From Vicinamibacterales bacterium (lineage in GTDB: Bacteria > Acidobacteriota > Vicinamibacteria > Vicinamibacterales > UBA2999): a DNA stretch of 64,000 nucleotides. The translations under genes and the position numbers were made by a program. Of this stretch, positions 1,249 through 36,693 are shown in pieces (position 1 is the stretch's first letter; each line of letters opens with the position of its first letter). The notes beneath the pieces were generated by a model. It was not told the DNA's origin, made no database searches, and saw nothing but the letters and a program-made list of their open reading frames with translations. Where the stretch lies: positions 17,968 to 81,967 of the forward strand of contig CAXNKG010000008.1 of assembly GCA_964202965.1 (NCBI GenBank). Direction: 5' to 3'.

Positions 1249-1274
1249 GAGCGTAGAGTATGCCGGGAGGCGAA

Positions 1275-2840: not shown

Positions 2841-2943
2841 GGTTCCTGAAGTTCCTGAAGTTCCTAGGGTTCCTGGGGTTCTGAGGTGCGGAACTTTAGG
2901 AACCCCTAGGAACCCCAGGAACCCCTAGGAACCCCAGGAACTT
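2841..2943. repeat. 9-bp-unit inverted array (GTTCCT-core units, then AGGAACCCC units) forming a hairpin between convergent genes
   Basis: ggttcctgaagttcctgaagttcctagggttcctggggtt ... aggaacccctaggaaccccaggaacccctaggaaccccaggaac; followed by a C10 run. Confidence 0.9.
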
Positions 2944-2954
2944 TACCCCCCCCC

Positions 2955-4313: not shown

Positions 4314-4355
4314 GGGGTCAGACCCCGGTGACGGGTCGTTCCGGGGTCTGACCCC
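4314..4355. repeat. REP-like palindrome pair GGGGTCAGACCCC / GGGGTCTGACCCC
   Basis: Two 13-bp palindromes at 4314-4326 and 4343-4355. Confidence 0.8.
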
Positions 4356-5499: not shown

Positions 5500-5535
5500 T
5501 GCTGGCATGATACTTTTTACGAAGTGGGGGTGCAG

Positions 5536-6108: not shown

Positions 6109-6112
6109 TCCG

Positions 6113-10770: not shown

Positions 10771-10775
10771 GGACC

Positions 10776-12371: not shown

Positions 12372-12427
12372 GGCGGCTCCGGTCCGAGGCTGAATGCCTC
12401 GAGGCCCGGACCCGCCGAAGGAGACTC

Positions 12428-21375: not shown

Positions 21376-22022
21376 ACGCGCGTGAGCGCATCGTTCGCCG
21401 CGTCGCCCGCGAGCTGCGCGACGGCGACTATGTCAATCTCGGCATCGGTCTCCCGACGCTCGTGGCCAACTACATTCCTCCGGGGATCCATGTCGTCATC
21501 CACTCCGAGAACGGCATGCTGGGGGTGGGGCCGTATCCGGCCGACGACCAGGTTGACGCCGATCTCATCAATGCGGGGAAGGAGACGGTGACCGAGGAGG
21601 CGGGCGCGTCGTATTTCGACGGCGCGACGTCGTTCGCGATGGTGCGCGGGGGTCACATAGACCTTACGGTGCTCGGGGCGATGCAGGTTGATGCCGAGGG
21701 CAGTCTGGCCAACTGGATGATTCCAGGGACCATCATGCGGGGGATGGGCGGCGCGATGGACCTGGTGGCCGGCGCTCGCCGCGTCATCGTGGCCATGGAG
21801 CACACGACGCGGGCCGGGGCGCACAAGATCGTGGAGCGCTGCACGCTCCCGCTGACCGGCGCCAGGGTGGTCCACCGGATCATCACCGAACTGGCCGTCA
21901 TCGACGTGACGCCACGGGGGCTCGTTCTGGTCGAGCGGGCCGAGAACTCGACGGTTGAGGCGGTACAGGCGGCCACCGGGTCCGGGCTGGTCGTGGCCGG
22001 CGGGGCGCCTGCGTTGTTCTAG
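21372..22022 (+). CDS. 3-oxoacid CoA-transferase subunit B
   Basis: [13 protein letters not shown] (catalytic Glu), GMGGAMDLV. Confidence 0.92.
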
Positions 22023-22077
22023 GCGGTCCTCCGCCGCTTTGCTACAATCCCCGCTTGCCGAGAGGGGGCATGCTCAT

Positions 22078-23232
22078 ATGAAAAAACTCAGCGCCAAAAA
22101 ACTCAGCGCCGCTGTGGCGGCTTTCGCGGTGTTACTCGTCGTCGGCGGGTTCGCACAGTCGCAGCAGCAGAAGGGCGGCGGCGACATCACGGGTCCGTAC
22201 GAAGTGGTGGCCAACTGGCCGCAGAACTGGTGCGGGCAGGGCTTTCAGATCGGGTCGACTGCCGGTGTCTGGGCCGAGACGCCGGATCGCGTCTTCATCT
22301 TCTCCCGCGGATGCCTACCGGTTCTCGAAAATCCGGGCGACCCGGTGCCGACCCGCAATGCATCGGGGTATGACCTCTCACAGAAGGACCCGACCCGGCA
22401 TCCGCGCTGGGATCACATCGTCAACATCGTCGATCGCAACGGCCGGCTGGTGGAGTCGTGGGAGCAGCACAACAAGCTGTTCGTCCGGCCGCACCGCGTC
22501 CTCGTGAACCCGTACGACCCGGAACGTCATGTGTGGCTCGTCGATGACGGTGTCCATGCTATCTACAAGTTCACGCGCGACGGCAAGCAGCTCGTGCAGA
22601 CCATCGGCACGCCGCGTGTGCCTGGGAACGACGAAACCCACTTCGCGCGGCCGACCGATATCGCGTGGCTGCCCGACGGGACGTTCTTCATCAGCGACGG
22701 CTACATCAACACGCGCGTCGTGAAGTTCGACCGCAACGGCAAGTACCTCACGTCCTGGGGGATGAAGGGCACGCCGCCCACCGAAACGCGGCCGTACTAC
22801 ATGAACACGGTGCACGCGATTGTCGCCGACAAGCAGCGCCGTCTCTACGTCAGCGATCGCGCCAACAACCGCGTACAGGTCTTCGACGAGAACGGGAAGT
22901 TCCTGGACGTGTGGCCGAACGTGCCGCTGCCGTACTCGTTCCTGATGTCGGACGACCAGCACCTCTGGTCCGCGTCTGGGCAGACGCAGAAGTTCACGAA
23001 GTACGACCTGAACGGGAAGCTGCTGTCCTCCTGGGGCACGTTCGGCACGATGCCGGGCGGCTTCTGGGGTGTGCACCAGTTCCACGTCGACAGCGAGGGC
23101 GGTCTGTACACGGCCGACGTGCATGTTGGCCGGCCGCAGAAGTTCCGCCCGCGCCCCGGCGTGAATCGCGACCTGCTCATCGGCGCCCCAACCCGCGCGG
23201 TGCGCACGGTCACGACGTCGTCGAGCAACTAA
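22078..23232 (+). CDS. Secreted peptidyl-alpha-hydroxyglycine amidating lyase (PAL)-like NHL protein
   Basis: Signal peptide; RPH, FARPTDIAW, DGYINTRVVKF, HAIVAD, DRANNRVQVF. Confidence 0.8.
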   Translation: MKKLSAKKLSAAVAAFAVLLVVGGFAQSQQQKGGGDITGPYEVVANWPQNWCGQGFQIGSTAGVWAETPDRVFIFSRGCLPVLENPGDPVPTRNASGYDLSQKDPTRHPRWDHIVNIVDRNGRLVESWEQHNKLFVRPHRVLVNPYDPERHVWLVDDGVHAIYKFTRDGKQLVQTIGTPRVPGNDETHFARPTDIAWLPDGTFFISDGYINTRVVKFDRNGKYLTSWGMKGTPPTETRPYYMNTVHAIVADKQRRLYVSDRANNRVQVFDENGKFLDVWPNVPLPYSFLMSDDQHLWSASGQTQKFTKYDLNGKLLSSWGTFGTMPGGFWGVHQFHVDSEGGLYTADVHVGRPQKFRPRPGVNRDLLIGAPTRAVRTVTTSSSN

Positions 23233-23238
23233 CCGCCC

Positions 23239-23275
23239 ATTAAATAGGGTCGGGGGTCATTTAATGAGGACACTC
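23239..23275 (+). repeat. 37-bp dispersed repeat, copy 2
   Basis: ATTAAATAGGGTCGGGGGTCATTTAATGAGGACACTC; contains the ATG at 23264. Confidence 0.9.
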
Positions 23276-24655
23276 CGGCCCCATCCGCTTGCCGTTGTCG
23301 TCTGCGCGCTGTTCGCGCTGACGGCGGCGGCCTCCTCGCAGTCTCCGCAGCGTCCGTCGTGGCTCGACCCGTACCGCGAGACCGCGGCGCAGCTGATCCA
23401 CGAGTCCACACGCGACGACTTCGCGTGGCGGCGTCTCGCAGAGCTCACCGACACCTTCGGTCATCGCCTCAGCGGTTCCGAGAATCTCGAGCGCGCCATC
23501 GCGTGGGCGCGCGAGACGATGAAGCGCGACGGCCTGCAGAACGTCCGCACCGAGCCGGTCATGGTCCCGAAATGGGTGCGTGGCCGCGAGAGCGCAGAGA
23601 TCCTTAGTCCTCCGCAGCATCCGATCGCGATGCTGGGGCTTGGCGGGTCCGTGGGCACGCCGTCCGGCGGCATCGAGGCGGACGTGCTGACCGTGGCGTC
23701 CTTTGACGAGGTGCGGTCCCGAGCGGAAGACGCGCGCGGGCGCATCGTGCTGTTCAACGCCCCGTTTTCCACCTACAGCGATACGGTGACCTACCGGACC
23801 AACGGCGCGCGCGTCGCGTCACAACTGGGCGCCCTGGCGGTGCTCGTGCGCGGCGTGGGCCCCGCGGGTCTTCGCACGCCTCACACGGGCAGCGTCCAGT
23901 ACGGACAGGGCATTCCGCCGATTCCGGCCGCCTCGATTTCAGCCGAAGATGCGGACCGCATTGCGCGCCTCTCGGCCGCCGGGACCCGCGTGCGCGTCAG
24001 GCTGACGATGGAGGGGCGTACCGATCCTGACGTCGAGTCCGCGAATGTCGTCGGTGAGATCCGCGGGCGGGAGCGCCCGGAAGAGATCGTGCTGCTGGGC
24101 GGTCATATCGATTCCTGGGACGTCGGCACCGGCGCGTCAGACGACGGGGTCGGCTGCATCGTCACCTGGGAGGCCGCGCGGCTGATGGCGAAGCTGGGCA
24201 TCAGGCCCCGCCGCACCATTCGCATCGTCCTCTGGACGAACGAGGAGAACGGGCTGCGCGGCGCCACGGCGTACGCCGCTCGTCACGCCGCACACGCCTC
24301 CAATCACGTGTTCGCGCTCGAGTCCGATTCAGGGGTCTTCGAGCCCGCCAGCCTCGGGTTCTCGGGGAGCGGTGCGGCGCGAGGCCTCGTTCGTGACATC
24401 GGGTCGCTGCTTACCCAACTGGGACTGTCGGACATCGTTGCGGGCGGCGGCGGGGCCGACATCGGACCAATCGCCCAGGCTGGCAACGCGCCGATGATGG
24501 CGTATCTCGGGAATCCCACCAGGTACTTCGCGATTCACCACACGCCGGCTGATACGGTGGAGCGGATCACGCCGCAGGAAGTGTCCAAAGCCGCAGCCGC
24601 CATCGCCGTCATGGCGTATGTCGTGGCGGAAATGCCCGATCGCCTGCCGCGCTGA
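23264..24655 (+). CDS. Secreted M28 family peptidase (carboxypeptidase Q-like)
   Basis: GHRLSGS, PHTG, GGHIDSWDVG, DDG, NEENGLRG, ESDSG, HHTPAD. Confidence 0.9.
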   Translation: MRTLRPHPLAVVVCALFALTAAASSQSPQRPSWLDPYRETAAQLIHESTRDDFAWRRLAELTDTFGHRLSGSENLERAIAWARETMKRDGLQNVRTEPVMVPKWVRGRESAEILSPPQHPIAMLGLGGSVGTPSGGIEADVLTVASFDEVRSRAEDARGRIVLFNAPFSTYSDTVTYRTNGARVASQLGALAVLVRGVGPAGLRTPHTGSVQYGQGIPPIPAASISAEDADRIARLSAAGTRVRVRLTMEGRTDPDVESANVVGEIRGRERPEEIVLLGGHIDSWDVGTGASDDGVGCIVTWEAARLMAKLGIRPRRTIRIVLWTNEENGLRGATAYAARHAAHASNHVFALESDSGVFEPASLGFSGSGAARGLVRDIGSLLTQLGLSDIVAGGGGADIGPIAQAGNAPMMAYLGNPTRYFAIHHTPADTVERITPQEVSKAAAAIAVMAYVVAEMPDRLPR

Positions 24656-24742: not shown

Positions 24743-27682
24743 ATGTTCGCTATCTGGCGTGTACTGTGTGTCGGCGTGCTCTCGCTCCTGATATCGACCG
24801 CCACCGCGACCGCGCAGCAGCGCGGGTCGGTCAGCGGCAGAGTCCTTGACGCGGGGGGTCTGGTCCTGCCCGGCGCCACGGTCACCCTTACCGAACAGAA
24901 CACCGGGTTCAACCGCACGGTCGTGACGGCTGAGAACGGCGCGTACGCGGTGCCTAATCTTGATCCGGGCGTCTATTCGCTCGTGGCGGAACTGGCGGGC
25001 TTCGCCACGGTCACGCGGAACGGCCTGCAGCTGACGGCCGGGTCGGCCATCACGGCGGATGTCACGCTGCAGGTCGCGGGGCTGCAGGAATCGATTCAAG
25101 TCACGGCGGAGATCCCGCTCGTGCAGACGTCGACGAACCAGATCGGCGGCACGCTCTCGAGCCGCGAGATCGAGGAAGTGCCGTCGAACTTCAGGAACTT
25201 CACTGCGCTGACGCAGTTGATTCCCGGCATCACGCCGAACCCGGCCGCCTCGACGTTCGAGGGTGGGCAGGTGGTGGCGAACGGGACGCCGTCGCAGCAG
25301 AACGTCTACCTGATCGACGGCATGTACAACAACGACGATCGGCTCGGCGGCAGCCAGGGCACGCAGGTGCGCATGGTGCTGGACAACATTGCCGAGTACC
25401 AGGTGCTGACGAACCAGTACAGCTCGCAGTACGGCGGCGGGGCGGGGACGATCATCAACATGATCTCGCGCGGCGGCACCAACGAACTGCACGGCCGCGT
25501 CTACTCGTACTTCCGGGACGACCGGTTCAACGCGCGCAACGCGTTCCTTCCGGCATCGGCCCCCAAGCCTCAGGAGCGGACGCTGCAGGCGGGCTTCGGC
25601 ATCGGCGGCCCGATCGTCCGGAACCGCGCGCACTTCTACTTCACGATGGAGAAGGACCACGAGGACATCGCGGGGCAGAAGCGCTTCCCGGCCGCTGCGG
25701 CGCCGCTGGCTCGCGACATGGTCGGCACCTTCGAAGTCCGTGCGACGAACTATTTCGCGCGCGGCGATCTGCAGATTAACCAGCAGAACCTGCTCAACTT
25801 CCGGTGGGTGCTGGAGACCGCTCCGACGCGAGGCGAGGGATTCAACACCAACACCGAGACGATCGACGCCCAGGGGTGGGAGGGCGACCGGGACAACTTC
25901 ATGGGCGCGACCTATACCTCCGTCTGGAGCAGCCGTGCGACCAACGAGCTCCGTGTAGGCCATATTGCCGAGGAGCTCGGGACCGGCGCGCAGGTGTTCT
26001 TTGACGACGACGTGAAGCAGATTGGGTTCAATAGCCGCGACCCGTTCTCCGTCGGGCAGCGGAACGTGCATCCGAGCTACATCACCGGCCGCGGCGGCGA
26101 GGGGCTGAACACCAGAATCAAAACCTACACCCTCGACGAGTCGTTCAGCTATTTCGCGCCCGCGCTGTGGGGACGCGAACATTCGTTCAAGGTTGGTGGC
26201 GGCCTCGGCATGCACGAGATGCCGCCCCGCACCACGTTCAGCTCGGGCACATTCCAGTTCCGGACGGACGCGCCCTACAACCCCACGAACCCGGCGACCT
26301 TCCCGTTCCAGTTCAACGTGACGGTCGGTCCGCCGGATCCCTACGGGTACCCGGTGTTTTCCCGGGACCGCCGGTACAACTTCTTCGCCGAAGATCGCGT
26401 GAAGGTCGCCGGCAATGTGACGTTGAACCTCGGCATCCGCTACGACCACCATCGGCAGACGCCGAACAGCAAGGATGACTTCGCCCCGCGAATCGGGTTT
26501 GCGTGGGACCTGCGGGGCACCGGGCGCACGGTCGTGCGCGGCGGCATCGGCAAGTTCTACGCGTATCCACCAGTGGTACTCGACCTGACGCTGCAGCAGA
26601 ACGCCGTCCGCACGCGTTTCCCGGGCATCGCCATCAACGAGGCGCATCCGCTGGCCGGCCTGGTGCTGCGACCCGTCATGATCAACGACTCGGAGGGTAA
26701 TCCCGGCGTGGCGCAGCTGAGCCCGGCCGCCCAGGCCGCGCTCAATGCCTTCCGCGACCAGGTACTCGCGGGCTCGACCTTCAACCAGAATCCCTGGGTG
26801 GACAGCCCGGATCGACAGCTGCCGTACACGTGGTCGTACAGCTTCGGCCTGAACCACCAGATCGGGTCGAACGCCGCGGTGGGCGTTGATTACGTCGCGA
26901 ACGTGTCGCGCGATCAGCTCGGCGTGATTGATCTGAACGAACCGGTCAACCGCGTCCGGCCCGGGATCAACACGATCGATCCGGGCGGCCAGCTGATTCC
27001 GCTTGCGGCGCGCGGCACGACCTTCGCGCGCGTGCTGCAGGCCCAGACCAGCCCGGACTTCAACGGCGACTACAAGTCGGTTCAGGTCTCTCTGCTCAAG
27101 CGCATGGCCAATCGCTGGAGCGGCCGTCTGGCCTACACGGCGCAGGAAAGCCACTACGTCGGCCTCGGCAACCCGGACGCGCGGCGGGTGTGGTCCGACA
27201 GGGAAGTACGGGCGGACTACGGGCGGTTCGCGTCCGACAGAACGCACGTGCTGGCGGCGAGCAGCACCGTGAACGTCTGGCGCGCCTTCAACATCGCGGC
27301 GGTGGTGAGCGCGATTTCAGGGGCGCCGATCAACGAAACCGTCGGCTCGGATGTGAACGGCGATCTCGACAACAACGATCGGCCGATCCGCGGGATCAAC
27401 GACCTGACGATCCCGATTCGGTCCGAGGTGGACGCGCAGGGGCGCGCGGTTATCAACGGCCTGGAAGGACCGGGGTCGCTGCTGGTCGACACGTCGTTCC
27501 GATACTCGATCCCGTTCGGCCGCGGCCTCGAGAGCCTCGACCTGTTCTACGACATCTTCAATCTCTTCAACCGTGAGAACCATGTGCCGCCGACCGGCAA
27601 TCGCGCGTCGTCGGTATTCATGGTGCCGACTGCCGCGCAGTTCCCGCGGCAGATGCAGTTCGGCGTTCGCGTGCGGTTCTAG
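24743..27682 (+). CDS. TonB-dependent receptor (Oar-like)
   Basis: Signal peptide; GLVLPGATV, RGGTN, APRIGFAWD, PRQMQFGVRVRF. Confidence 0.9.
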   Translation: MFAIWRVLCVGVLSLLISTATATAQQRGSVSGRVLDAGGLVLPGATVTLTEQNTGFNRTVVTAENGAYAVPNLDPGVYSLVAELAGFATVTRNGLQLTAGSAITADVTLQVAGLQESIQVTAEIPLVQTSTNQIGGTLSSREIEEVPSNFRNFTALTQLIPGITPNPAASTFEGGQVVANGTPSQQNVYLIDGMYNNDDRLGGSQGTQVRMVLDNIAEYQVLTNQYSSQYGGGAGTIINMISRGGTNELHGRVYSYFRDDRFNARNAFLPASAPKPQERTLQAGFGIGGPIVRNRAHFYFTMEKDHEDIAGQKRFPAAAAPLARDMVGTFEVRATNYFARGDLQINQQNLLNFRWVLETAPTRGEGFNTNTETIDAQGWEGDRDNFMGATYTSVWSSRATNELRVGHIAEELGTGAQVFFDDDVKQIGFNSRDPFSVGQRNVHPSYITGRGGEGLNTRIKTYTLDESFSYFAPALWGREHSFKVGGGLGMHEMPPRTTFSSGTFQFRTDAPYNPTNPATFPFQFNVTVGPPDPYGYPVFSRDRRYNFFAEDRVKVAGNVTLNLGIRYDHHRQTPNSKDDFAPRIGFAWDLRGTGRTVVRGGIGKFYAYPPVVLDLTLQQNAVRTRFPGIAINEAHPLAGLVLRPVMINDSEGNPGVAQLSPAAQAALNAFRDQVLAGSTFNQNPWVDSPDRQLPYTWSYSFGLNHQIGSNAAVGVDYVANVSRDQLGVIDLNEPVNRVRPGINTIDPGGQLIPLAARGTTFARVLQAQTSPDFNGDYKSVQVSLLKRMANRWSGRLAYTAQESHYVGLGNPDARRVWSDREVRADYGRFASDRTHVLAASSTVNVWRAFNIAAVVSAISGAPINETVGSDVNGDLDNNDRPIRGINDLTIPIRSEVDAQGRAVINGLEGPGSLLVDTSFRYSIPFGRGLESLDLFYDIFNLFNRENHVPPTGNRASSVFMVPTAAQFPRQMQFGVRVRF

Positions 27683-27699
27683 GAAGCAATTCCCCACGT

Positions 27700-27757
27700 G
27701 CCAACTTCCAATTCCCAAGACTCTTGGGAGTTGGGAGCTGGGCGATTGGGAGTTGGG
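27700..27757. repeat. 7-bp-unit inverted repeat (TTGGGAG) between convergent genes
   Basis: ccaacttccaattcccaaga-c-tcttgggagttgggagctgggcgattgggagttggg. Confidence 0.7.
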
Positions 27758-28627
27758 TCAGCGCGGCGCGACGGCGGTGACCTCGCACATGATCCGGGCC
27801 CCCGGAATCCCGGTGCGGACGGCGCGGGTGGTCCGGCAGGGCCGCCAGTCTCCGAAGCGTTCCTGCATGGACGCCACGCCTTTCACTTCGCCCGTCCGCG
27901 CCATCAGCACGATGTTCTGCCATCCAAGGCGCGCCGTCTTCAGCATGCGATCGATGCTGTCCGCGACCATCTTTTCCTGAGCCGCCAGGTCGTCTGGCAG
28001 CTTGTAGCTGCCTGGATTCCAGGGATCGACGTCCGGCGGATACGCTGTGACCGCCGGGAAGTACACGAGGTCGACCGCGTTCGTCACGCGGATTGCGGGC
28101 GCCTGCGGCAGCTCCTTGAGCGCGACGCCCGGCCGGTCGATGATGGCTTCGATGCCGGCCACCGGCCCCCGCGCCGCGATCTGTTTGTGTGGAGCCGTGG
28201 CGGTGACCTGATACATGACGTTGACGCCAGGGACGCCGGTATCGACCACCCGCAGGCTCGTGCTGCACGGCCGCCAGTCGCCGTACTGGGCAGCGAAGTT
28301 GATCCCGCCGCCTCCCGGAGCGGCGTAGTTCACGTTGAAGACGATGTGCTCCCAGGTGGAGCCGGCCGCCTTCAGGATGCGATCGAGGTTGGCGGTCGCC
28401 ATCTTGCCGCGCTCAGCTGCGTCCTCCGGCAGACGGAAGGATCCGGGATTCCACGGGTCCACCTCCGGCGGATAGGCGCTGATGCCTGAGATGATCAGCA
28501 GATCGAGCGTCGGGCTGATCTCGATAGCGGGCGCGAATGCCGCCCGGTCCGTGACTTCGGGCCGCGGAAAGATCGCGTGAAGGCCCTTCAGCTTCGATTG
28601 ATGCGGTGAGTTTTCTGCCTGTGCCAT
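27758..28627 (-). CDS. Tandem two-domain Rid (YjgF/RidA) family protein
   Basis: Internal duplication AYPPEVDPWNPGSFRLPED / AYPPDVDPWNPGSYKLPDD; L..AG..W..IV; WRPCST / WRPCRT. Confidence 0.7.
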   Translation of the reverse strand: MAQAENSPHQSKLKGLHAIFPRPEVTDRAAFAPAIEISPTLDLLIISGISAYPPEVDPWNPGSFRLPEDAAERGKMATANLDRILKAAGSTWEHIVFNVNYAAPGGGGINFAAQYGDWRPCSTSLRVVDTGVPGVNVMYQVTATAPHKQIAARGPVAGIEAIIDRPGVALKELPQAPAIRVTNAVDLVYFPAVTAYPPDVDPWNPGSYKLPDDLAAQEKMVADSIDRMLKTARLGWQNIVLMARTGEVKGVASMQERFGDWRPCRTTRAVRTGIPGARIMCEVTAVAPR

Positions 28628-28650
28628 TGACGCCTCGTTGTTGTAACGGC

Positions 28651-29184
28651 CTACCCGACGACGACCCGCGTGCCGGCGGGCGCGACCCACATGTCAATCT
28701 CCAGGCGCGCCTGGGGAGACGAGAGGCCATTGACCTCGTAGATCGTCATTGCGGGCCACCAGTCCTTGAAGTAGCTGCGCAGCACCGCCTCGATCTGCGG
28801 CGACTCGTCCATCCGCGTCTGGTACCGCGTCAGCTTGACGACATTGCGCCAGCCAAGGCCGGCCCAGTCGAGGATCTCCTTGTGGTTGATGATCGTCAGG
28901 CGGGTCTGCAGCCGGATGTCCTCCGGCTGCACCACTTCCTCGCGGGGGTCGTGCGGGTGCTTGTGGTACAGCTCCATGGCCGTCCCACCCGCGTGCGGAA
29001 TGATGCCGTTGGTGAGCGGCACACGGATAAACGCGGCATTGCGGCCCGCGGCGCGGGCACCCGCCTGCACGGCGGCTTCCACAACTGGCGAGGGTGCGAG
29101 CGTCCCCAGTGACCCGCCGGCCGCGGCGATACCGCCAGAGCCGAGGACGCGAAGGAGTTGTCGTCGATCGAGAAACACCGCCAT
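28651..29184 (-). CDS. Tat-signal Rid family protein
   Basis: DRRQLLRVLG twin-arginine signal; DIRLQT, AGLGWRNVVK, PAMTIYEVNGL...RLEID. Confidence 0.75.
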   Translation of the reverse strand: MAVFLDRRQLLRVLGSGGIAAAGGSLGTLAPSPVVEAAVQAGARAAGRNAAFIRVPLTNGIIPHAGGTAMELYHKHPHDPREEVVQPEDIRLQTRLTIINHKEILDWAGLGWRNVVKLTRYQTRMDESPQIEAVLRSYFKDWWPAMTIYEVNGLSSPQARLEIDMWVAPAGTRVVVG

Positions 29185-29275
29185 GCGTAATCTCCTGGAA
29201 AAAGAGATGGAGCCCGGATGTCACATCGCGAGATCAGAGTACACGCGTACCGCCGCCCGGCGTGTGGCCGTTTGC

Positions 29276-29809
29276 TCAGTCAACGACGGCCACCACCTGT
29301 ATTTCGATCAATTGTTCCGGCTCGCCGAGCTCGAGCACCACGACGTTGGTCGACGTCGGTTTGTGGTTGAACGGGGCGAAGTACGAATTGATGACCGCAC
29401 TCGCGCGCCCGAGGTCGCCGATGCGGGGCCGCGTCCTGAACACAAACATGTGCACAACATCGCCGAAGGTCGCACCGGAGGCCGCGAGTGTCTGCTTAAT
29501 GCCGTCCATCGTCGCCCGCGTCTGCGCCTCGAGGTCGTTCGGCAGGTGCTTCACGACCTCGTCACGGCGATGCGGGTGATCGTGATACACCGGCACCGCA
29601 GTCGTGCCCGCCAGCCAGAGCATCTTCCCCGAGGCGACTTTGATGGCCGGCACGAACGGCATGTTCAATGACTTGTCGAAGCCCGGATGGTGAACGGCCT
29701 CGATATGTTCGCTGGGCGCCGCGGTCTGTGCGGCGGATGGCGTGGGGGCGGCAAGGAGTCCCGCGCACACGAACACGAAGATACCGGGCACTGCGACTCG
29801 CGTTGTCAT
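29276..29809 (-). CDS. Sec-signal Rid family protein
   Basis: Signal peptide; LWLAGTT, DLEAQT, ASGATFGDVV, PTSTNVVVLELGEPEQLIEIQVVA. Confidence 0.8.
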   Translation of the reverse strand: MTTRVAVPGIFVFVCAGLLAAPTPSAAQTAAPSEHIEAVHHPGFDKSLNMPFVPAIKVASGKMLWLAGTTAVPVYHDHPHRRDEVVKHLPNDLEAQTRATMDGIKQTLAASGATFGDVVHMFVFRTRPRIGDLGRASAVINSYFAPFNHKPTSTNVVVLELGEPEQLIEIQVVAVVD

Positions 29810-29849
29810 GGCGAACTCCTGGTGAAGAGGGCTATCCGGCGCGACGGCT

Positions 29850-29865
29850 TGCCGAACTCATGCCA
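29850..29865 (-). promoter_or_regulatory. Sigma-54 promoter of the Rid operon
   Basis: TGGCATGAGTTCGGCA, GG-N10-GC. Confidence 0.65.
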
Positions 29866-29927
29866 CTTTGCCGGACGCCGCGCTCCGGCATGGCGCCGTC
29901 GCGACGACCCGCTCTGACCATCTTCGT

Positions 29928-29967
29928 TGTAAGAATTTCTCACGACAAGCTGTGCGCTTTCTGCACA
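29928..29967. promoter_or_regulatory. Tandem enhancer boxes TGTR-N9-CACR (probable activator binding sites)
   Basis: TGTA-agaatttct-CACG at 29928 and TGTG-cgctttctg-CACA at 29951; 23-bp spacing. Confidence 0.75.
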
Positions 29968-30063
29968 ACGGATGTGCCGCCAGGCTTGGGCGCCTGGCGA
30001 TTCCATCGCCGTCTGCCTTCAAGACGGGCCGAAACGTGATCAGGTCTCGACGTGGCTCCCTGC

Positions 30064-30079
30064 TGGAATAACAGTTGCT
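30064..30079 (+). promoter_or_regulatory. Sigma-54 promoter of the receptor/amidohydrolase operon
   Basis: TGGAATAACAGTTGCT (TGG-N8-TTGC). Confidence 0.8.
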
Positions 30080-30188
30080 TCGGCCCCGTGCTTCCGGTCC
30101 ATCGACAGGTCCCCGTTCATGCGCGACCGCGTGTGTGCGAGGCCTGTCTGCCACAGGCGACGAGCTTCTAGAGACCAGGGGGGTCACG

Positions 30189-33100
30189 ATGACGATCAGG
30201 AGGACAGTGGCGCGACTGCTCGCGGGTGTGCTGATGCTCGTGGCGCTCCCATGCGCAGCGTGGGCGCAGGCCACCGCTCAACTAAGCGGCACGGTGCGCG
30301 ACCAGGACGGCGGCGTACTGCCAGGCGTGTCCGTGACGGTGAGTCACGTCGAGACCGGCCTGACGCGTACGACGGTTACCAACGAGACCGGCACCTACGC
30401 GCTGCCGAATCTCCCGCTCGGCACGCACCGGTTCGAGGCGGCTCTCCAGGGGTTCCAGACGTACGTGCAGACGGGAATCGTGCTGCAGGTCAACAGCAGC
30501 TTCCTCATCAACCCGGTGCTCAACGTCGGCGCTCTGGCCGAGAGCGTCGAAGTGGTCGCGTCCGCGGCCATGGTGGAGACGCGCGCTGTTGGCGTCGGCC
30601 AGGTGATGGAGAACGAGCGCATCCTGGCGCTCCCGCTCAACGGACGCAACGTGGCGGATTTGATTGTGCTCTCGGGGCAGGCCGTGCAGACGGCGACGAC
30701 AACCGCCGGCAGCAGGTCCTTCCGAACAGGCGATCTCCAGCTGTCGGTCGGCGGGGGGCTGCGCGGCGGCGAGTCGTACATGCTGGACGGCGCCCGCTAC
30801 AAGAATCTGTTCGACGGCAGCGCGCTGCCGTATCCGTTTCCCGATGCGCTCCAGGAGTTCAAGGTCGAGACGTCAGGCCTGTCGGCGGAACATTCGGGCG
30901 GCGCCAGCGTCAGCGCGGTGACCCGATCCGGCACGAACCAGTTTCATGGCACCGCCTTCGAGTTCCTGCGGAACGACCTGTTCAACGCCCGGGGCTATTT
31001 CGCCACCCGGAACAGTACGCTCAAGCGCAACCAGTTCGGCGGGACGTTCGGTGGGCCGGTGCTGGAAAACCGCGTGTTCTTCTTTGGCGGCTATCAGGGG
31101 ACGATGCTGCGGCAGGATCCTGCCGACCAGCGCTCCCGGATTGTCACGCCGGCCATGCTGGCCGGCGACTGGACGACCGTCGCTTCCCCCGCCTGCAACA
31201 GCGGACGCCAGGTCACCCTGGGTGCGCCGTTCGTCAACAACCGGATCGATCCGGGGGTGTTCAGCCGTCCGTCCACCGACATTGCCAGACGGCTTCTCGC
31301 CGAGTCGGCGTCGCCGGATCCGTGCGGCGAGGTCGTCTTTGGCCGCCGCAATATCTATGACGAGCATCAGTACGTGGCGAGGGTGGACTATCAGCTGAAC
31401 AACAGCCACTCTCTCTTCGGGCGCGCCATGATCTTCACCTACGTGGCGCCCCGGCCGTCCGACTTCAACAATCCGCTTCTGAACGCGAACTCGCAGGGCG
31501 CCGCGACGTCTTCACAAGGGTATGCGACCGGGTCCAACTACATCCTCAGCCCAACCGCTGTGAACTCGCTGCGCTTTTCCGCCAACGTCCCCAGCATCAC
31601 GCGACGGACCTATGGCGGCTTCGATCCGACCGAGGTCGGCATCAATGCCGTGGCCGATACCAAGGGCTACACCATCGTGCTGATCCCCGGCGCGTTCAAT
31701 ATCGGGGCAGCGCACCTCAGCGCCGATTCGGTGTTTGACGGACACCATTTCACCATCGAGGACAGTCTCAACGTGGTGAAGGGTCGACACCAGATTGGCA
31801 TCGGCGCGAGTCTCGCCTACGCGAGCATGCACACCGAACTGGCGACGTCGGTCGCGCCGACCTTCAGCTTTACGACGCAGGTGACGGGCTTGGCGGTTGG
31901 AGACTTCATGATCGGGCGGCCCGCGTCAATGGTGCAGGGCAGTCCGGCCGATGTCGTCCAGACGCAGTGGCTCCCGGTGATGTACGCCCAGGATGCCTGG
32001 CAGGTGAAGCCGACCGTCACGCTGACCTACGGCGTCCGGTGGGAGCCAGACCTTCCGGTGGCCATGGAGGAAGGCTTCATCGTCAACTTCGACTATGAGC
32101 GCTTCCGCCAGGGGACCAAGAGCACCGTGTTCAGGAACGCGCCGGCGGGGCTCTATTACCCGGGCGATCCCGGCTTCCCCGGCAAGACGGGCGTGAACAG
32201 CTCCTGGCTGAAGTTCGCGCCGCGCCTTGGTGCGGCGTGGGATGTCCAGGGCGACGGCCGCATGTCGGTACGGGGTTCGTACGGCCTCGGCTACGACCAG
32301 CAGTTCCTCGGGTATTACAACGGCACGTTCGTCGCGTCGCCGTTCTTCAACCGCCTGACGCTCGTCAACCCGGCGGGAGGCTTGGCCAATCCGTGGCAGG
32401 GCGTGCCAGGCGGCCAGCCGTTTCCGCGGACGCAGATCGGCGCGGACGCCGCCTTCCTTCCCTTCGGCGATTATCTGAGCATGCCGTACGACCGCGAACG
32501 GCCGCGGAGTCAGTCGTGGAACGCGACCGTGCAGCGGCAGTTCGGGATCGAATGGATGGCGATGGCGAGCTACGTTGGTACCCGCGGCGACCACCTGTGG
32601 GGCATCAAGATGCTGAACCCTGGGGTCTACGTGTCGAACGGCACGGCCACCTGCACCTTGCCGAACGGGCAGGCCATCACTGGCACCGGCACGCAGTGCT
32701 CGACGACGGGGAACACCAACCAGCGCCGGCGCTTCACCGTCGAGCGTCCGCAGGACGGCCAGTTCCTCGGCCGGGTCTCGGAGTTCGACACGAACGGGAC
32801 GCAGGACTACCACGGTCTGCGGCTGTCGCTCGATCGGCGGTCGCCGCTCGGGTTGACCATTGGTGGCAACTACACGTACTCGCAATGTCTGCAGGACTTC
32901 ACGAGTGACGGATTGCCCAACGTGGAAGAGGCCTATCCCGACCCGAGCAATCGTGGCGCCGAGCGCGGCCCGTGCTTCGGTTCGCGGAACCACGCGGCCA
33001 ACGTCACGGGCGTGTACGCAGTGCCGGAATTCGCGAACCCCACGCTGCGTGCCGTGGCGAGCGGCTGGCGGGTGTCGGGCATCTACCGCCGGCTGAGCGG

Positions 33101-33509
33101 GCGGTTTGTGAACGTGACGGCGGGGCCGGACCGCGCGTTGACCGACATTGTCAATCAGCGGCCGAACCAGGTGCTGGATGACGTGTTCAGCGACACGTCG
33201 GGACGTCCGCTGTCGCAGTTCTGGAATCCGGCGGCCTTCGCTCTGCCGCCGGTCGGGACGATCAACGGCAATGCGGAGCGCAATGGCTTTGAGGGGCCGC
33301 CGACGTGGCAGCTCGACATGGCGCTGTCGCGCATCGTCCGGGTTGGCGCGCACGGACTCGAGTTCCGCGCGGAGGCGTACAACGTGACGAACAGCTTCCG
33401 GGCTGCCGATTTCGGCAACAATGTGCCGCTGAGTTCGCCGACGTTCGGGCAGATTCGCTCGGCGCTGGACTCCCGGATCCTGCAGTTTGCGCTGAAGTAC
33501 TCCTTCTAG
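30189..33509 (+). CDS. TonB-dependent receptor (Oar-like)
   Basis: Signal peptide; LPLNGRN, PDALQEFKV, TRSGTNQFHG, APRLGAAWD, RILQFALKYSF. Confidence 0.92.
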   Translation: MTIRRTVARLLAGVLMLVALPCAAWAQATAQLSGTVRDQDGGVLPGVSVTVSHVETGLTRTTVTNETGTYALPNLPLGTHRFEAALQGFQTYVQTGIVLQVNSSFLINPVLNVGALAESVEVVASAAMVETRAVGVGQVMENERILALPLNGRNVADLIVLSGQAVQTATTTAGSRSFRTGDLQLSVGGGLRGGESYMLDGARYKNLFDGSALPYPFPDALQEFKVETSGLSAEHSGGASVSAVTRSGTNQFHGTAFEFLRNDLFNARGYFATRNSTLKRNQFGGTFGGPVLENRVFFFGGYQGTMLRQDPADQRSRIVTPAMLAGDWTTVASPACNSGRQVTLGAPFVNNRIDPGVFSRPSTDIARRLLAESASPDPCGEVVFGRRNIYDEHQYVARVDYQLNNSHSLFGRAMIFTYVAPRPSDFNNPLLNANSQGAATSSQGYATGSNYILSPTAVNSLRFSANVPSITRRTYGGFDPTEVGINAVADTKGYTIVLIPGAFNIGAAHLSADSVFDGHHFTIEDSLNVVKGRHQIGIGASLAYASMHTELATSVAPTFSFTTQVTGLAVGDFMIGRPASMVQGSPADVVQTQWLPVMYAQDAWQVKPTVTLTYGVRWEPDLPVAMEEGFIVNFDYERFRQGTKSTVFRNAPAGLYYPGDPGFPGKTGVNSSWLKFAPRLGAAWDVQGDGRMSVRGSYGLGYDQQFLGYYNGTFVASPFFNRLTLVNPAGGLANPWQGVPGGQPFPRTQIGADAAFLPFGDYLSMPYDRERPRSQSWNATVQRQFGIEWMAMASYVGTRGDHLWGIKMLNPGVYVSNGTATCTLPNGQAITGTGTQCSTTGNTNQRRRFTVERPQDGQFLGRVSEFDTNGTQDYHGLRLSLDRRSPLGLTIGGNYTYSQCLQDFTSDGLPNVEEAYPDPSNRGAERGPCFGSRNHAANVTGVYAVPEFANPTLRAVASGWRVSGIYRRLSGRFVNVTAGPDRALTDIVNQRPNQVLDDVFSDTSGRPLSQFWNPAAFALPPVGTINGNAERNGFEGPPTWQLDMALSRIVRVGAHGLEFRAEAYNVTNSFRAADFGNNVPLSSPTFGQIRSALDSRILQFALKYSF

Positions 33510-33606: not shown

Positions 33607-35313
33607 ATGCGACGCTCGAATAATCTTCTGACCGTCCTGCTGTCCGGCGGAGCCCTCTTCGCCACCGGTCTCGCCGCCGTCCTGATGACGCAGGCGCTCT
33701 CGAAGCCGCCAGATGACCGGGTGGTCAGTTATCCGGACACGCTTGTCCTGAACGGGAAGGTCGTCACGGTCGACGACGCCTCCAGTGTTCAGGAAGCGCT
33801 CGCCATTCGCGACGGCAGGTTCCTCGCGGTGGGCACGACGGCGGAGATGCGGAGTCTGGCCGGGCCCTCCACGCGCATCATCGACGCCGGCGGCCGCACG
33901 GTGCTGCCGGGACTCATCGACACACACGTCCACCTGATCCAGGCGGCGGTCTTCTGGCGCGACGAGATTCGCGTGGACGAGGCGCGCAGCCTCGACGACA
34001 TCTTTGCGGCGATCCGGGCGCGCGCGGCGACCGTGCCGCCGGGTACGTGGATTCTGATCCGCGGCGGCTGGCACTATTCCCAGCTGCGCGAGCGGCGCAT
34101 GCCGACGCGGGCCGAACTCGACCGCGTGGCCCCTGCGCACCCGGTGCACGTGCAGGCCACCTACGAGGTGGTGCAGCTCAATTCGCTGGGAATCACGGCG
34201 AGCGGAATCACGGGGCAGACGGCACTGCCGCCTGGCGGGTCGATGGAGAAGGACGCCCAGGGTAATTTCACCGGCGTGCTGCGCGGCACGCGCGGGGTGC
34301 TGATGGGCCGCGAGAAGTACTTCCCGCGCCTGTCGTTCGACGACAAGATTGCCGGCCTGCGCGCCGTGATGCGGGAGTTCAACGCCGCCGGCCTGACGGG
34401 CATCATCGACGGCAACGGGCTGTCCATCATCGAGCACTGGCTGGACAGCGACGAGGACTACCAGGCGATGTTCGAAGTGTGGCGGCGTGGGCAGATGACG
34501 CTCCGCGTCGGGCTTCAGCTGGACTCGCGCGACGAGGCGCAGGCGCTCGACGTCCTGGATCGCTTTCCGGCGCGGTTCGGCGACGACATGTTCTGGCTGA
34601 ACTCCGTCGGCGAGAACCTGATGCTGGACGTCTGGAATCCCGCCAGCTATCCGCTGCCGCCGGCGGCGCGTGCGGCGTTCACGCGCGTCGTCGAAGCGGC
34701 CGTCGCGCGCAACGCCACGATGCAGATCCACTCCCAGACCGAGCCGCAGCTGAACACCATGCTCGAGGTCTTCGAGGACGTGCACGCCCGGACGCCGCTC
34801 GATCACCTGCGCTTCACCCTTCTCCACGCGGAGCTGTTGACCCCGCCGATGATCGAACGGATGAAGCGTCTGGGCATGGGCGTCATGATCCAGTCCCGAC
34901 AGCTGGTCACGGCGGACGTGCTGCAGAAGACCTGGGGCGCGCGTATGGACGATGCGCCGATTGTCAAGACGGTGTTCGAAAGCGGACTCCCGCTCGGCGG
35001 TGGCACGGACGGCACGGTCGCGGTGCCGTTCCGGCCGTTCATGGCGCTCTATTGGTACATCTCGGGGCGCAGCTGGCGCGGGGATCTCGTGCGGCCGACG
35101 CAGCGTCTCACACGCGAGCAGGCGCTGCAGGTCTATACGCGGCAGGCCGCCTGGTTCAGCTTTCAGGAGGACCGCCGCGGTGCGATTATGCCCGGCTTTC
35201 TCGCGGACCTCATCGTGCTCGACAAGGACTACCTGACGGTGCCCGAGGAGGAGATCGCGACCATCCGCCCGGTGATGACGATCGTCGACGGGAAGGTCGT
35301 GTTCGAGCGCTGA
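33607..35313 (+). CDS. Secreted amidohydrolase 3 (YtcJ-like)
   Basis: NGKVVTVD, PGLIDTHVH, QIH, LHAE, GGTDG, GFLADLIVLD. Confidence 0.87.
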   Translation: MRRSNNLLTVLLSGGALFATGLAAVLMTQALSKPPDDRVVSYPDTLVLNGKVVTVDDASSVQEALAIRDGRFLAVGTTAEMRSLAGPSTRIIDAGGRTVLPGLIDTHVHLIQAAVFWRDEIRVDEARSLDDIFAAIRARAATVPPGTWILIRGGWHYSQLRERRMPTRAELDRVAPAHPVHVQATYEVVQLNSLGITASGITGQTALPPGGSMEKDAQGNFTGVLRGTRGVLMGREKYFPRLSFDDKIAGLRAVMREFNAAGLTGIIDGNGLSIIEHWLDSDEDYQAMFEVWRRGQMTLRVGLQLDSRDEAQALDVLDRFPARFGDDMFWLNSVGENLMLDVWNPASYPLPPAARAAFTRVVEAAVARNATMQIHSQTEPQLNTMLEVFEDVHARTPLDHLRFTLLHAELLTPPMIERMKRLGMGVMIQSRQLVTADVLQKTWGARMDDAPIVKTVFESGLPLGGGTDGTVAVPFRPFMALYWYISGRSWRGDLVRPTQRLTREQALQVYTRQAAWFSFQEDRRGAIMPGFLADLIVLDKDYLTVPEEEIATIRPVMTIVDGKVVFER

Positions 35314-35334: not shown

Positions 35335-36693
35335 TCAGTCGATCCCGAACTTCTGCAGCTTGTCGTACAGCAGCCGCCGGTTGATCTTCAGGAGTTCGGC
35401 GGCACGCGACTTGTTTTCGTGCGCCTGCGCCAGAGCCCGGCGCACGAGGCTCTGTTCGAGCTTCGTGATCAGCGCATGGAATCCTTCATCCAGCGGCAGC
35501 TCCCCGAACGGATCGCTCCTGCGCGCCGGCGGCGGTGGGGCGAGCAGATCCGGGCCGATCGGCGCGCCCTGGCACAGGATGACACCGCGCTCGATCACGT
35601 GCTCGAGTTCGCGCACGTTGCCCGGCCAGCTGCCGGCCTTCAGCACGTCGATCGCCTGCGGGGTGAGGCTCGTCGGCGTGACCTTCCGCCGGGAAATCAG
35701 CTTGCGAAGGATGTGGGCGGCGAGGGCTGGAATGTCCTCGCGGCGATCGCGCAGCGGCGGCGCCTCGATCGTCACCACGTTGAGCCGGTAGAACAGGTCT
35801 TCCCTGAACGCCCCCTTCCGGATGGCCTGTTTCAGGTCGGCATTCGTCGCGGCCAGGATTCGCACGTCGAGCGCAATCGTCCGCTCCGATCCGAGCGGCT
35901 CGATCGTCCGCTCCTGCAGGACCCGCAGCAGCTTGACCTGCATGGAAGGCGAGAGCTCCCCGATTTCGTCGAGGAAAATGGTGCCGCCCTCGGCGATCTC
36001 GAACTTCCCGCGTTTCCGCGCGATGGCACCGGTGAAGGCGCCCTTCTCGTACCCGAAGAGCTCCGCCTCGAGCAGCGTGTCGGGGATCGCCGCGCAGTGG
36101 ACGGCGACCAGCCGTGCGGCGCGCCGCGGGCTGTGAGCGTGGATGGCGCGCGCAATCAACTCCTTGCCGGTTCCGGATTCACCGAGGATCAGCACGGTGG
36201 AATCCGACGACGCGACCTGTGCGATCAGTTTGTAGACCTGCCGCATCGGTGCGCTGTCACCGACGAGTTCCACCTGCGCCGCGGATCCACTGTCTTCCAC
36301 GTACCGCTCGAGGCTCATCGCCTGCAGGCGGTTGGCGATCGAGCGTTTCAGCTGGATGAGCAGCTCGTCGAAGCGAATCGGCTTGGTGAGGTAGTCATAG
36401 GCGCCGAGGGTCATCGCCTCGATCGCGACGTCGGAGCTGCCAAAGGCCGTCATCACCAGAATGGCCGGGGCCGCGGGATGTTCGCGCAGATCGCGCAGGA
36501 TCGTCAGGCCGTCGCGGCCCGGCATCCGGATGTCGAGCAGCACGGCGTCGTAATTCGACTGCTGCAGCGCCTCGGTCGCTTCGGTCCCGTCGCACGCGGC
36601 ATCCACGTGATAGTGCTCCTCCTCGAGGAGCGTCTGCAGCGTCTCGCGCGCCCGGACGTCGTCTTCGACGATGAGCACGTGGGCCTTTTTCAC
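35335..36693 (-). CDS. Sigma-54-dependent response regulator (NtrC/AtoC/ZraR type)
   Basis: REC (EDD, LDIRMP, KP), GESGTGKE, GAFTGA, FLDEIG, FREDLFYRL, WPGNVREL, Fis-type HTH. Confidence 0.95.
   Translation of the reverse strand: MKKAHVLIVEDDVRARETLQTLLEEEHYHVDAACDGTEATEALQQSNYDAVLLDIRMPGRDGLTILRDLREHPAAPAILVMTAFGSSDVAIEAMTLGAYDYLTKPIRFDELLIQLKRSIANRLQAMSLERYVEDSGSAAQVELVGDSAPMRQVYKLIAQVASSDSTVLILGESGTGKELIARAIHAHSPRRAARLVAVHCAAIPDTLLEAELFGYEKGAFTGAIARKRGKFEIAEGGTIFLDEIGELSPSMQVKLLRVLQERTIEPLGSERTIALDVRILAATNADLKQAIRKGAFREDLFYRLNVVTIEAPPLRDRREDIPALAAHILRKLISRRKVTPTSLTPQAIDVLKAGSWPGNVRELEHVIERGVILCQGAPIGPDLLAPPPPARRSDPFGELPLDEGFHALITKLEQSLVRRALAQAHENKSRAAELLKINRRLLYDKLQKFGID

Follow-up and report, generated by a model that had tools for sequence, protein, structure and literature searches.

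The subject of this analysis is a stretch of 64,000 nucleotides from a Vicinamibacterales bacterium (GenBank assembly GCA_964202965.1, contig CAXNKG010000008.1, positions 17,968 to 81,967 of the forward strand), here called the window, in whose coordinates positions are given unless another locus is named. On its minus strand, three genes for proteins of the Rid superfamily lie head to tail, separated by gaps of 91 and 23 nucleotides. An original prediction, made from the sequence alone, had described them as encoding a Rid protein with a Sec-type signal, a Rid protein with a twin-arginine (Tat) signal and, 23 nucleotides further on, a signal-less protein with two Rid domains. The three open reading frames are present where it placed them, and all motifs it listed (VYHDHPH and LYHKHPH; PTST, PAMT, PCST and PCRT) were found. 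It had further proposed that the Tat protein and the tandem protein supply three Rid domains that are exported together as one pseudo-trimer, and it is with this pair that the present analysis is mainly concerned.

The first gene (29276..29809, minus strand) codes for P0001, a protein of 177 amino acids that is called Sec-Rid below. It opens with MTTRVAVPGIFVFVCAGLLAAPTPSAAQ, where one arginine, a hydrophobic core and an A-A/Q site give the appearance of a Sec-type signal; the predicted signal covers residues 1 to about 28, and the protein carries the motifs VYHDHPH (His loop YHDHPH at 29570-29587) and KPTSTN. The second gene (28651..29184, minus strand) codes for the Tat-Rid P0002, also of 177 amino acids, which combines a twin-arginine signal with one Rid domain that lacks strand beta-1 and would form domain D1 of the pseudo-trimer. 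It opens with MAVFLDRRQLLRVLG and has the motifs LYHKHPH and WPAMT. The predicted Tat signal peptide (29074..29184; residues 1 to about 37) contains the motif DRRQLL, with the two arginine codons at 29161-29166, a Gly/Ala-rich h-region and V-E-A as the likely cleavage site, and the His loop of D1 (Y73-H74-K75-H76-P77-H78; 28951..28968) is part of an eight-residue insert after the equivalent of Gly31 in RidA. From the TAG stop codon of this gene (28651-28653), a spacer of 23 nucleotides that contains GAGG (28628..28650) leads to the ATG of the third gene at 28627, which stands in another frame. This third gene (27758..28627, minus strand) codes for the tandem protein P0003 of 289 amino acids, the N-terminus of which is hydrophilic and free of any hydrophobic stretch. 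P0003 consists of two homologous halves, D2 (residues about 13-150; 28178-28591) with the motif RPCSTS and D3 (residues 151-289; 27761-28177) with RPCRTT. In D2 the residues C121-S122-T123-S124 (28256..28267) place a serine at the position of Arg105 of RidA, and Arg265 of D3 (27833..27835) is the sole equivalent of this arginine among the three domains of the pair. The tandem gene could also be read from a GTG at 28690, for a product of 310 amino acids, but this start was rejected, as homologues begin at a conserved MAQ. Ratios of non-synonymous to synonymous substitution (dN/dS) of 0.06-0.25 across the three Rid genes indicate purifying selection, the ratios being rough with dS at about 1 or more and near saturation.

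All three proteins pass the cut-off of PF01042 (27.3 bits), P0001 with 51.4, P0002 with 52.5 and P0003 with 29.3 bits, the last match being confined to residues 58-101, and structural matches to the Rid fold were obtained for the pair as well. None of them reaches the cut-off of TIGR00004 for the RidA subfamily (106.25 bits; scores 31.1, 41.1 and 16.3), to be compared with 144.6 bits for a canonical RidA encoded elsewhere in the genome, which has PPARS and the conserved glutamate. The four domains were aligned with E. coli RidA from NC_000913.3, and in the order Sec-Rid, Tat-Rid, D2 and D3 they have Ser, Met, Ser and Arg at position 105, Glu, Glu, Met and Met at position 120, Ser, Glu, Gly and Val at position 88, and Gly, Ser, Gly and Gly at position 114. 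The claim that the catalytic arginine is found in the last domain only is thus borne out. According to the relevant passages of PMC1884159, the conserved set of RidA comprises Arg105, Tyr17, Gly31, Asn88, Pro114 and Glu120; judged by their residues, the Rid domains at this locus fall outside a RidA subfamily defined by Arg105 and this set. The His-rich insert that had been noted in both single-domain proteins is confirmed, and the slot after Gly31 is in fact occupied in all four domains, by an eight-residue insert with YHxHPH or YPPxVDPW. D1 is about 30% identical to D2 and D3, and these two are 41-47% identical to each other (residues 15-148 align to residues 156-288 of the homologue at locus L001 at 47%). 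A sequence search with P0003 against the Protein Data Bank (PDB) gave nothing significant (best value 0.084), and a protein atlas search returned generic L-PSP clusters only, the scores of 0.85-0.88 for P0003 being leads and no more.

Fused and split relatives of the pair

Relatives of the tandem protein occur in two forms. The search with P0003 yielded 182 proteins at E<=1e-3, of which the best 120 were used; with P0003 itself these make 121 sequences, and 117 usable ones were left when the fragments P0068, P0072, P0082 and P0085 had been dropped. In this set, 50 of the 117 are fused and 67 are split. The fused form has a Tat signal, then a D1 domain with MELYH[KR]HPH and then the tandem in a single chain, in many cases of 430-465 amino acids, and the ten long homologues that were read have a twin-arginine N-terminus, a P0002-like domain (MELYH[KR]HPHDPREE) and the tandem. 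A search with P0002 gave 127 homologues at E<=1e-3.

The distribution of the two forms was followed on a tree of the tandem part, which was obtained by a quick maximum-likelihood method (LG+G4, SH-aLRT support only) and is unrooted, with a midpoint used for drawing. The label fused or split changes seven times on this tree, at least four of these changes being forced by well-supported branches, and none of 500 label shuffles gave as few. The junctions vary by lineage as well. The fused gene at L009 reads GTRIMAG-Y-VPQTKPVGASRVRG where the split locus L006 has GTRVMVG-stop-QRGTAMAQTRPLGASRIKG in the same frame, so that L009 reads through the position of the in-frame stop. The fused forms at L010 and in P0038 retain an internal MAQAT or MTQTT, a conserved sequence with which split tandem genes start (M1 and Q3 are nearly invariant in the 67 split forms), and the group of P0048 has the junction GTRQAKGL. 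Because of these start remnants and differing junctions, the sequences point to several independent fusions of a split ancestor, a direction that is deduced on an unrooted tree. In five of nine split loci (L001, L002, L003, L006 and L019) both genes are in the same frame, with one stop and 5-35 sense codons between them; the frames differ in the window and at L004, L007 and L098. At L010 (5193-7424), the fused frame runs to 743 amino acids and is matched over tandem residues 13-244 only, the end of the third domain being replaced, which may be due to a frameshift or an assembly error. P0370 (312 amino acids) has a Tat signal, D1 and one further domain only, and may be truncated.

The synteny of the pair is strict. 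A scan with one genome per species gave ten loci, six of them split (L001-L004, L006 and L007) and four fused (L005, L008, L009 and L010). The Tat-Rid gene is immediately upstream of the tandem gene in all six split loci, and the gap between split genes is 15-33 nucleotides where starts are clear. When the window, L098 and the metagenome locus L019 are included, 13 of 13 loci have D1 next to the tandem or fused to it, and among these 13 there was no locus with one gene of the pair but not the other. L098 is a second copy in the window's own genome, on another contig (G000:C4:77000-95000, 5411-9750); it is split and 64-68% identical to the copy in the window. Here a TonB-receptor-like gene (5411-8335) ends 12 nucleotides before the Tat-Rid gene (P0200; 8348-8872), and the tandem gene (P0086; 8902-9750) starts 29 nucleotides after the latter. 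The last domain of P0086 has a glycine at the Arg105 equivalent (RPAGTRR). A DDE transposase gene lies just upstream (4071-5228).

In a profile search of 1.84 billion representatives at 50% clustering, one split and one fused full-length representative were found, plus fragments (nine matches at E<=1e-30); by this sequence measure the pair's family is tight. Its named members are from metagenome-assembled genomes of Vicinamibacterales or Acidobacteria. The record of L008 is titled 'uncultured Bifidobacteriaceae bacterium', a label that looks wrong, since its genes are 66-80% identical to the Vicinamibacterales-like genes of the window (80% for an M28 peptidase). Among 401 sampled genomes of the phylum, P0003 (E<=1e-20) and P0001 (E<=1e-25) had matches in their own genome only, which describes a sample and is no proof of absence. 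The profile search also gave signal-less two- and three-domain Rid proteins with one or two LYHxHPH loops (P0378, P0389, P0397, P0409 and P0381), of which P0409 joins a His-loop domain to a canonical Arg/Glu domain; since such signal-less multi-domain proteins carry the loop, the His-loop domain is a building block of wider use.

A predicted ring of three Rid domains and its probable export

A model of the fused relative P0048, for which the alignment contained 46 fused sequences, forms one compact body, with a mean predicted local distance difference test value (pLDDT) of 82.7 and a predicted template modelling score (pTM) of 0.83. It has three beta-alpha-beta-alpha-beta-beta units, and pLDDT is low in the His loop (residues 64-70). 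With Foldseek, chorismatases were found first (5a3k, E 2.4e-9, about 388 columns, template modelling (TM) score 0.20-0.28) and RidA monomers next. A wide VIA search placed 190 of 335 residues on chorismatase 5a3k_A (Z 12.3, root mean square deviation (rmsd) 2.9, model residues 44-437), with single Rid chains reaching up to Z 13.0 against the fused model; in an earlier, narrower VIA search chorismatase was absent from the best 50 rows, and it was found in the wide search only. The fold of D1 is matched by many RidA chains, for example 3i7t (Z 12.3-12.5, model residues 46-157). P0003 was modelled with AF2 (pLDDT 83.7, pTM 0.83), and in this model D3 matches RutC (3v4d_A; Z 12.9, rmsd 2.3, 99 aligned, residues 184-288), while both halves together match 5a3k_A (Z 10.0, rmsd 3.7, 164 aligned). 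D2 has no structural row of its own; the Pfam match, its identity to D3, a like order of secondary structure and the match of both halves to 5a3k_A speak for its fold. The alignments of many single RidA chains to the fused model span residues from about 34 up to 439 (residues 34-52 together with 308-439). The models suggest that the first strands of D1 sit where the N-terminal strands of RidA would be, against D3, and that a strand may be contributed across domains.

Modelling of the products of 27758-28627 and 28651-29184 together had been proposed as a check. It was done with P0003 and residues 48-177 of P0002, each with its own alignment and with three controls, and gave a score of 0.93, as compared to 0.01 for the best control. 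As a benchmark, which is rough only since own alignments were used here, the score is reached by 116 of 157 solved complexes and by two of 215 mismatched pairs. At least 97% of contacts are shared between runs, and the partner has a pLDDT of 86 or more. In the model the partner D1 contacts both domains of the tandem, over residues 19-128 and 181-289; the best-determined contacts are between D1 strand 52-57 and D3 residues 186-189 and between D1 residues 60-63 and D2 residues 35-37, and Tyr189 of D3 packs against Ala145 of D1, the residue that precedes the Arg105 position.

Closure of such a ring would create three unequal pockets, each lined by the Gly31/Glu120 side of one domain and the Tyr17/Arg105 side of the domain that follows. 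Conservation of the residues concerned was counted in 155 D1 sequences and 117 tandem sequences. Pocket 2, between the chains, would be formed by Gly66, the loop with His74, His76 and His78, and Glu162 of D1, together with Phe31 and Cys121-Ser124 of D2, of which residues 121-128 touch the partner chain in the complex model. It is the best conserved pocket and probably the working site: His74 and His78 are invariant (155/155), His76 is kept in 153 and Glu162 in 145 of the D1 sequences, and Cys121, Ser122 and Thr123 in 112, 114 and 117 of the 117 tandem sequences. Pocket 3 would lie within the tandem, where D2 loop 47-59 faces Arg265 (113/117, Gly in the other 4), Thr267 and Arg268 (117/117) of D3, and it would have no Glu120 equivalent. 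Pocket 1, at the D3/D1 boundary, appears degenerate, with the D3 loop and Met280 (variable; Met in 59 and Leu in 50 of 117) facing Phe52 and Met146 of D1 (variable; Met in 104 and Gln in 41 of 155). As far as the sequences go, the ranking by conservation agrees with the ranking of the pockets. A metal- or ligand-binding role, as was suggested originally, would fit the invariant His triad. According to passages of PMC4433059, alanine at Tyr17 or Glu120 has little effect on Salmonella RidA; for this reason pocket 3 may yet have a deaminase-type role.

With respect to export, none of the 151 D1 sequences that extend over the site lacks the RR pair (the other four of the 155 are truncated there); the h-region varies, and homologues have A-x-A-like signal ends. 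P0200 and P0084 gave weak formate_TAT matches. The genome encodes the Tat machinery, with TatC at 222.8 bits and two TatA/B genes at 77.9 and 65.1 bits. Since fused relatives put three domains behind one Tat signal, the split tandem would need D1 as its carrier to arrive in the compartment of the fused form. Tat carriage of signal-less subunits is described for PaoABC in parts of PMC4273604, and Tat heterodimers with one signal are described in parts of PMC10924467. To regard RidA proteins as cytoplasmic, as the original prediction did, is too general, since a periplasmic L-amino-acid oxidase has a RidA-like subunit, according to passages of PMC5053998, which provides a precedent for an extracytoplasmic Rid protein.

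We therefore consider it likely, on in silico grounds, that the pair represents the two subunits of an obligate 1+2 hetero-oligomer that is co-exported as a pseudo-trimer via Tat, and the proposal of the original prediction gains support from the 50 fusions among 117 relatives, the repeated changes of state, the adjacency in 13 of 13 loci, the complex model and the invariant RR pair. P0002 (D1) and P0003 (D2-D3) would close into a ring of three Rid domains, like a RidA homotrimer. The ring would assemble in the cytoplasm and be exported in folded form by Tat through the sole twin-arginine signal on D1, the tandem being a hitchhiker. Outside the cytoplasm, the asymmetric ring is likely to act as a periplasmic enzyme or binding protein for a small molecule imported by a TonB-receptor-like protein.

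Points against the ring and alternative explanations

Several points weigh against the proposed exported ring or limit it. Export, binding and stoichiometry in the cell are predictions. The complex score may reflect likeness to solved Rid homotrimers, so that the model makes a ring plausible but does not establish binding, and the pocket map is a deduction from a few model contacts. In no pocket do the equivalents of Arg105 and Glu120 occur together. The Tat-signal profile TIGR01409 has a cut-off of 16.7 bits, which is just missed by P0002 (15.5 bits) and the fused P0038 (16.0 bits), and P0048 gave no match. The tree is unrooted, made by a quick method and supported by SH-aLRT only. Readthrough could yield some fused protein in split loci with both genes in one frame, although not in the window, where the frames differ. 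The absence of matches in 400 other sampled genomes of the phylum indicates that the system is accessory and rare, as far as such sampling by sequence goes. Finally, the link to a TonB-receptor-like gene, described below, holds for five of 12 loci and not for the window.

The Sec-Rid requires separate consideration, as the original prediction had placed all three Rid proteins in one set. P0001 has 977 homologues at E<=1e-3, with members of about 175-180 amino acids, and 60 of 60 that were inspected have a signal-like N-terminus ending in A-x-A/Q and an invariant YH[DQ]HPH. Neither an RR pair nor a lipobox is seen in the N-terminus of P0001 itself, which reads as a Sec signal by its basic n-region, its hydrophobic core and its AxA site. 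A lipoprotein signal was rejected, as there is no lipobox around Cys15 and this cysteine is not conserved. Invariant in 27 aligned members are E37, H40, Y75-H80, H120, R125, R127, R129, H149, K150 and E169. A profile of the family has no close solved structure in the PDB (best E 2.9e-7). HKPTSTN of P0001, on the Arg105 side, resembles RPCSTS of D2, and its His loop and glutamate resemble those of D1. The Sec-Rid is presumably a separate, homotrimeric periplasmic His-loop Rid protein, with three copies of the pocket that would be kept once in the Tat ring; from what the sequences tell it is a bystander neighbour, not part of the complex. The pair of the original set thus stands as linked, whereas the Sec-Rid drops out as a member of a widespread family in which the pair is adjacent in one of 78 loci.

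That all three Rid proteins nevertheless form one periplasmic assembly or an obligate pathway is suggested by the head-to-tail genes with gaps of 91 and 23 nucleotides, by a like gene order at L019, and by the shared His loop, the Sec-Rid being 31-36% identical to D1-type proteins. We regard this as very unlikely, since a Sec-Rid beside the pair was found only in the window and in this one close relative, and no separate homologue is present at the ten genome loci of the pair or at the second copy L098. Conversely, a gene was called at 78 Sec-Rid loci, 48 of which extend 600 nucleotides or more downstream, and only L019 has the Tat pair. Among 80 metagenome loci, many of them short, the Sec-Rid family has no conserved neighbour (best TctC in 11 of 80, Mfd in 7 and a DsbA-like gene in 6), and its atlas clusters are commonest in Pseudomonadota. 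A different objection would be that D1 and the tandem act apart, D1 as a periplasmic homotrimer and the tandem as its own cytoplasmic oligomer, with the genes being neighbours through a shared pathway. Rid domains normally homotrimerise (passages of PMC4433059 and PMC1884159), the tandem has no signal, and the complex model could mirror general Rid likeness. Against this, the three domains form a single chain behind a Tat signal in 50 of 117 relatives, the tree shows repeated changes between the two states, and neither gene stands alone in any locus examined; moreover, D1 has no strand beta-1, in the model both tandem domains are paired with N-terminal strands of D1, and a two-domain chain alone cannot close a three-fold ring. 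Independent action is therefore most unlikely. It is hardly credible that the split state is just a fused gene in decay, a pseudogene in two pieces, even though fused forms exist and five of nine split loci keep both parts in one frame. There are 67 split forms with a conserved start, the tandem ATG in the window has its own GAGG, dN/dS for P0002 and P0003 is 0.09-0.25, both copies in the genome are split, and the remnants of a downstream start in fused linkers indicate the direction from split to fused. In addition, the junction of stop, 23 nucleotides and ATG is identical in DNA contigs from two studies, one run of which may be the source sample.

Other alternatives concern what an exported ring would do. 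It could be a periplasmic RidA-type imine/enamine deaminase, its D2/D3 pocket with Arg265 hydrolysing imines that are set free by a periplasmic oxidase or dehydrogenase of amino acids or amines; the role of the His loop would then be structural or regulatory. Arg265 stands at the Arg105 position and is conserved in 113 of 117 sequences, passages of PMC5053998 tell of Rid proteins outside the cytoplasm that are partners of L-amino-acid oxidases, and the neighbourhood has many genes for secreted peptidases and amidohydrolases. Still, no oxidase gene recurs by the pair in the 12 loci, the second copy P0086 has a glycine at this position, as do four of 117 sequences overall, Arg265 is no better conserved than the His triad, Cys121, Ser122 and Thr123, and none of the proteins reaches the RidA-subfamily cut-off (best 41.1 against 106.25 bits). 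A deaminase is therefore unlikely, though it deserves to be kept in mind. A further possibility, which we judge as unlikely, is that the ring is a single-site metalloprotein, with a His3-Glu site (His74, His76, His78 and Glu162 of D1) to which the other chain adds Cys121, Ser122 and Thr123. Tat would then be needed since ring closure and loading of the metal or cofactor have to take place in the cytoplasm; the Sec paralogues, with such a loop in three symmetric sites, would fold and load in the periplasm, the folding compartment would set metal or ligand specificity, as it does in the cupins MncA and CucA, and a TonB-receptor-like protein would be the dedicated importer, together describing a new exported non-deaminase branch of the Rid proteins.

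Neighbouring genes, known systems and significance

The exported ring, if it exists, probably handles a small molecule that is taken up through a TonB-receptor-like protein. A subfamily of such proteins (CarboxypepD_reg and OMP_b-brl_4), with members that are 67-73% identical, is encoded beside the pair in four loci: directly upstream and co-oriented at L004 (4705-7716), L006 (3344-6664) and L098 (5411-8335), and convergent downstream at L008 (11909-14794). L006 has a second, convergent copy (10043-12940), and at L007 a relative with 41% identity lies 4 kb upstream (488-3403). Unrelated receptors of like Pfam type lie on either side in the window and, at L003 and L010, upstream of the pair. 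In the window, the TonB-receptor-like outer-membrane protein gene at 24743..27682 (plus strand), convergent with the tandem gene, encodes a product with OMP_b-brl_4, CarboxypepD_reg and Plug that is 24-28% identical to the linked subfamily and lies outside it; a second such gene at 30075..33509 (plus strand; OMP_b-brl_4 568 bits) is divergent from the Sec-Rid gene, and its product is 43% identical to that of the gene upstream of the pair at L003. Taken together, the two receptors of the window are 24-32% identical to the linked subfamily.

Within the clade of the window (window, L001, L002, L003 and L008), a gene for an NHL-repeat beta-propeller and one for a PA-domain M28 peptidase, 80-84% identical, recur near the pair; in the window they occupy 21955-24655. 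A sigma-54-dependent response regulator and a histidine kinase (35335-38168, minus strand) are encoded downstream of a secreted Amidohydro_3 protein (33607-35313). A scan of 27600-30150 for promoters and terminators gave no promoter-like site and one terminator-like site, inside the Sec-Rid gene; with a mean of 1.6 in shuffled sequences, this is uninformative. A contig of 175 nucleotides from one freshwater-sediment metatranscriptome run equals 27762-27936 exactly, at the 3' end of the tandem gene; DNA carry-over is possible, and this is too little for a claim of transcription or co-transcription. Lake-water metagenomes of two studies account for the DNA runs in which most of the stretch is found.

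Among known systems, a first likeness is to 3x-RidA (EF_0115), a chain with three RidA domains that, according to passages of PMC4433059, is presumably a trimer with covalent links; fusions of two or four domains are said there to be rare. The fused relatives of the pair share the three-domain layout. However, 3x-RidA repeats RidA-type domains, and the signal-less three-domain P0396 has the arginine in each of them, whereas the pair has unlike domains, one arginine, a His loop in D1, a Tat signal and, in the window, a split of 1+2. The terms 'signal peptide' and 'periplasm' are absent from the text of PMC4433059. As to structure, the best whole-chain match of the fused form is to the chorismatases FkbO and Hyg5 (PDB 5a3k, 5ag3 and 4bps). 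In a chorismatase, three YjgF-like domains of one chain are arranged with pseudo-threefold symmetry, and there is one active site. The sequence identity is only 12-13%, with the low TM scores mentioned above, and chorismatases are cytoplasmic, belong to secondary metabolism and have no signal, His loop or split form. The Pfam scan of the window gave no chorismatase match, and no chorismate-related genes were found near the loci of the pair. The cyclic amide hydrolases of the Toblerone fold are also single-chain arrangements of three YjgF-like repeats; the match to barbiturase (5hwe, 5hxu; Foldseek E 3e-5, VIA Z 5.1, rmsd 7.7 over 182 residues) is too weak for a like arrangement.

HybOC and DmsAB are Tat hitchhiker complexes. 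The pair would resemble hitchhikers such as PaoABC and the heterodimers cited above in that one subunit bears the signal and signal-less partners fold in the cytoplasm, bind to it there and cross with it. Known Tat hitchhikers are redox enzymes with complex cofactors, whereas here paralogous Rid domains would close one ring and export is predicted; furthermore, unlike in known cases, fused and split versions of one ring both occur naturally. MncA and CucA are paralogous cupins, exported by Tat and Sec, respectively, that have like putative ligand sets and in which the folding compartment decides the metal. The present proteins have another fold, and metal binding by them is hypothetical. With respect to the missing arginine, passages of PMC4433059 report that Rid4-Rid7 proteins without Arg105 have no imine hydrolase activity and 'remain mysterious', and that about 10% of RidA proteins carry Ser at position 105. 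The Sec-Rid and D1 are like Rid4-Rid7 in lacking Arg105 with Glu120 kept, but Rid4 and Rid7 have Trp105, where the proteins studied here have Ser (Sec-Rid, D2) or Met/Gln (D1). Full-text literature searches, which do not cover all journals, gave no report of a Rid protein with a Tat signal; PMC3827258 only lists yjgF among genes named in an analysis of TatC proteins. Rid pseudo-trimers and Tat hitchhiking are each known, and it is their combination that is new.

Only the arginine-bearing branches of the ubiquitous Rid superfamily have a known activity. The invariant His loop marks a large family of Sec-exported Rid proteins (977 matches, E<=1e-3), and a metalloprotein role of the ring, if true, would define a branch with cytoplasmic cousins of two or three domains, among them P0378, P0389, P0397 and P0409. 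The pair suggests that unlike domains can make up a Rid ring, in which one or two specialised pockets are left, and such a ring is predicted to be sent out of the cytoplasm. The matched natural fused and split rings may well serve as a test bed for Tat hitchhiking and for the replacement of assembly by fusion.

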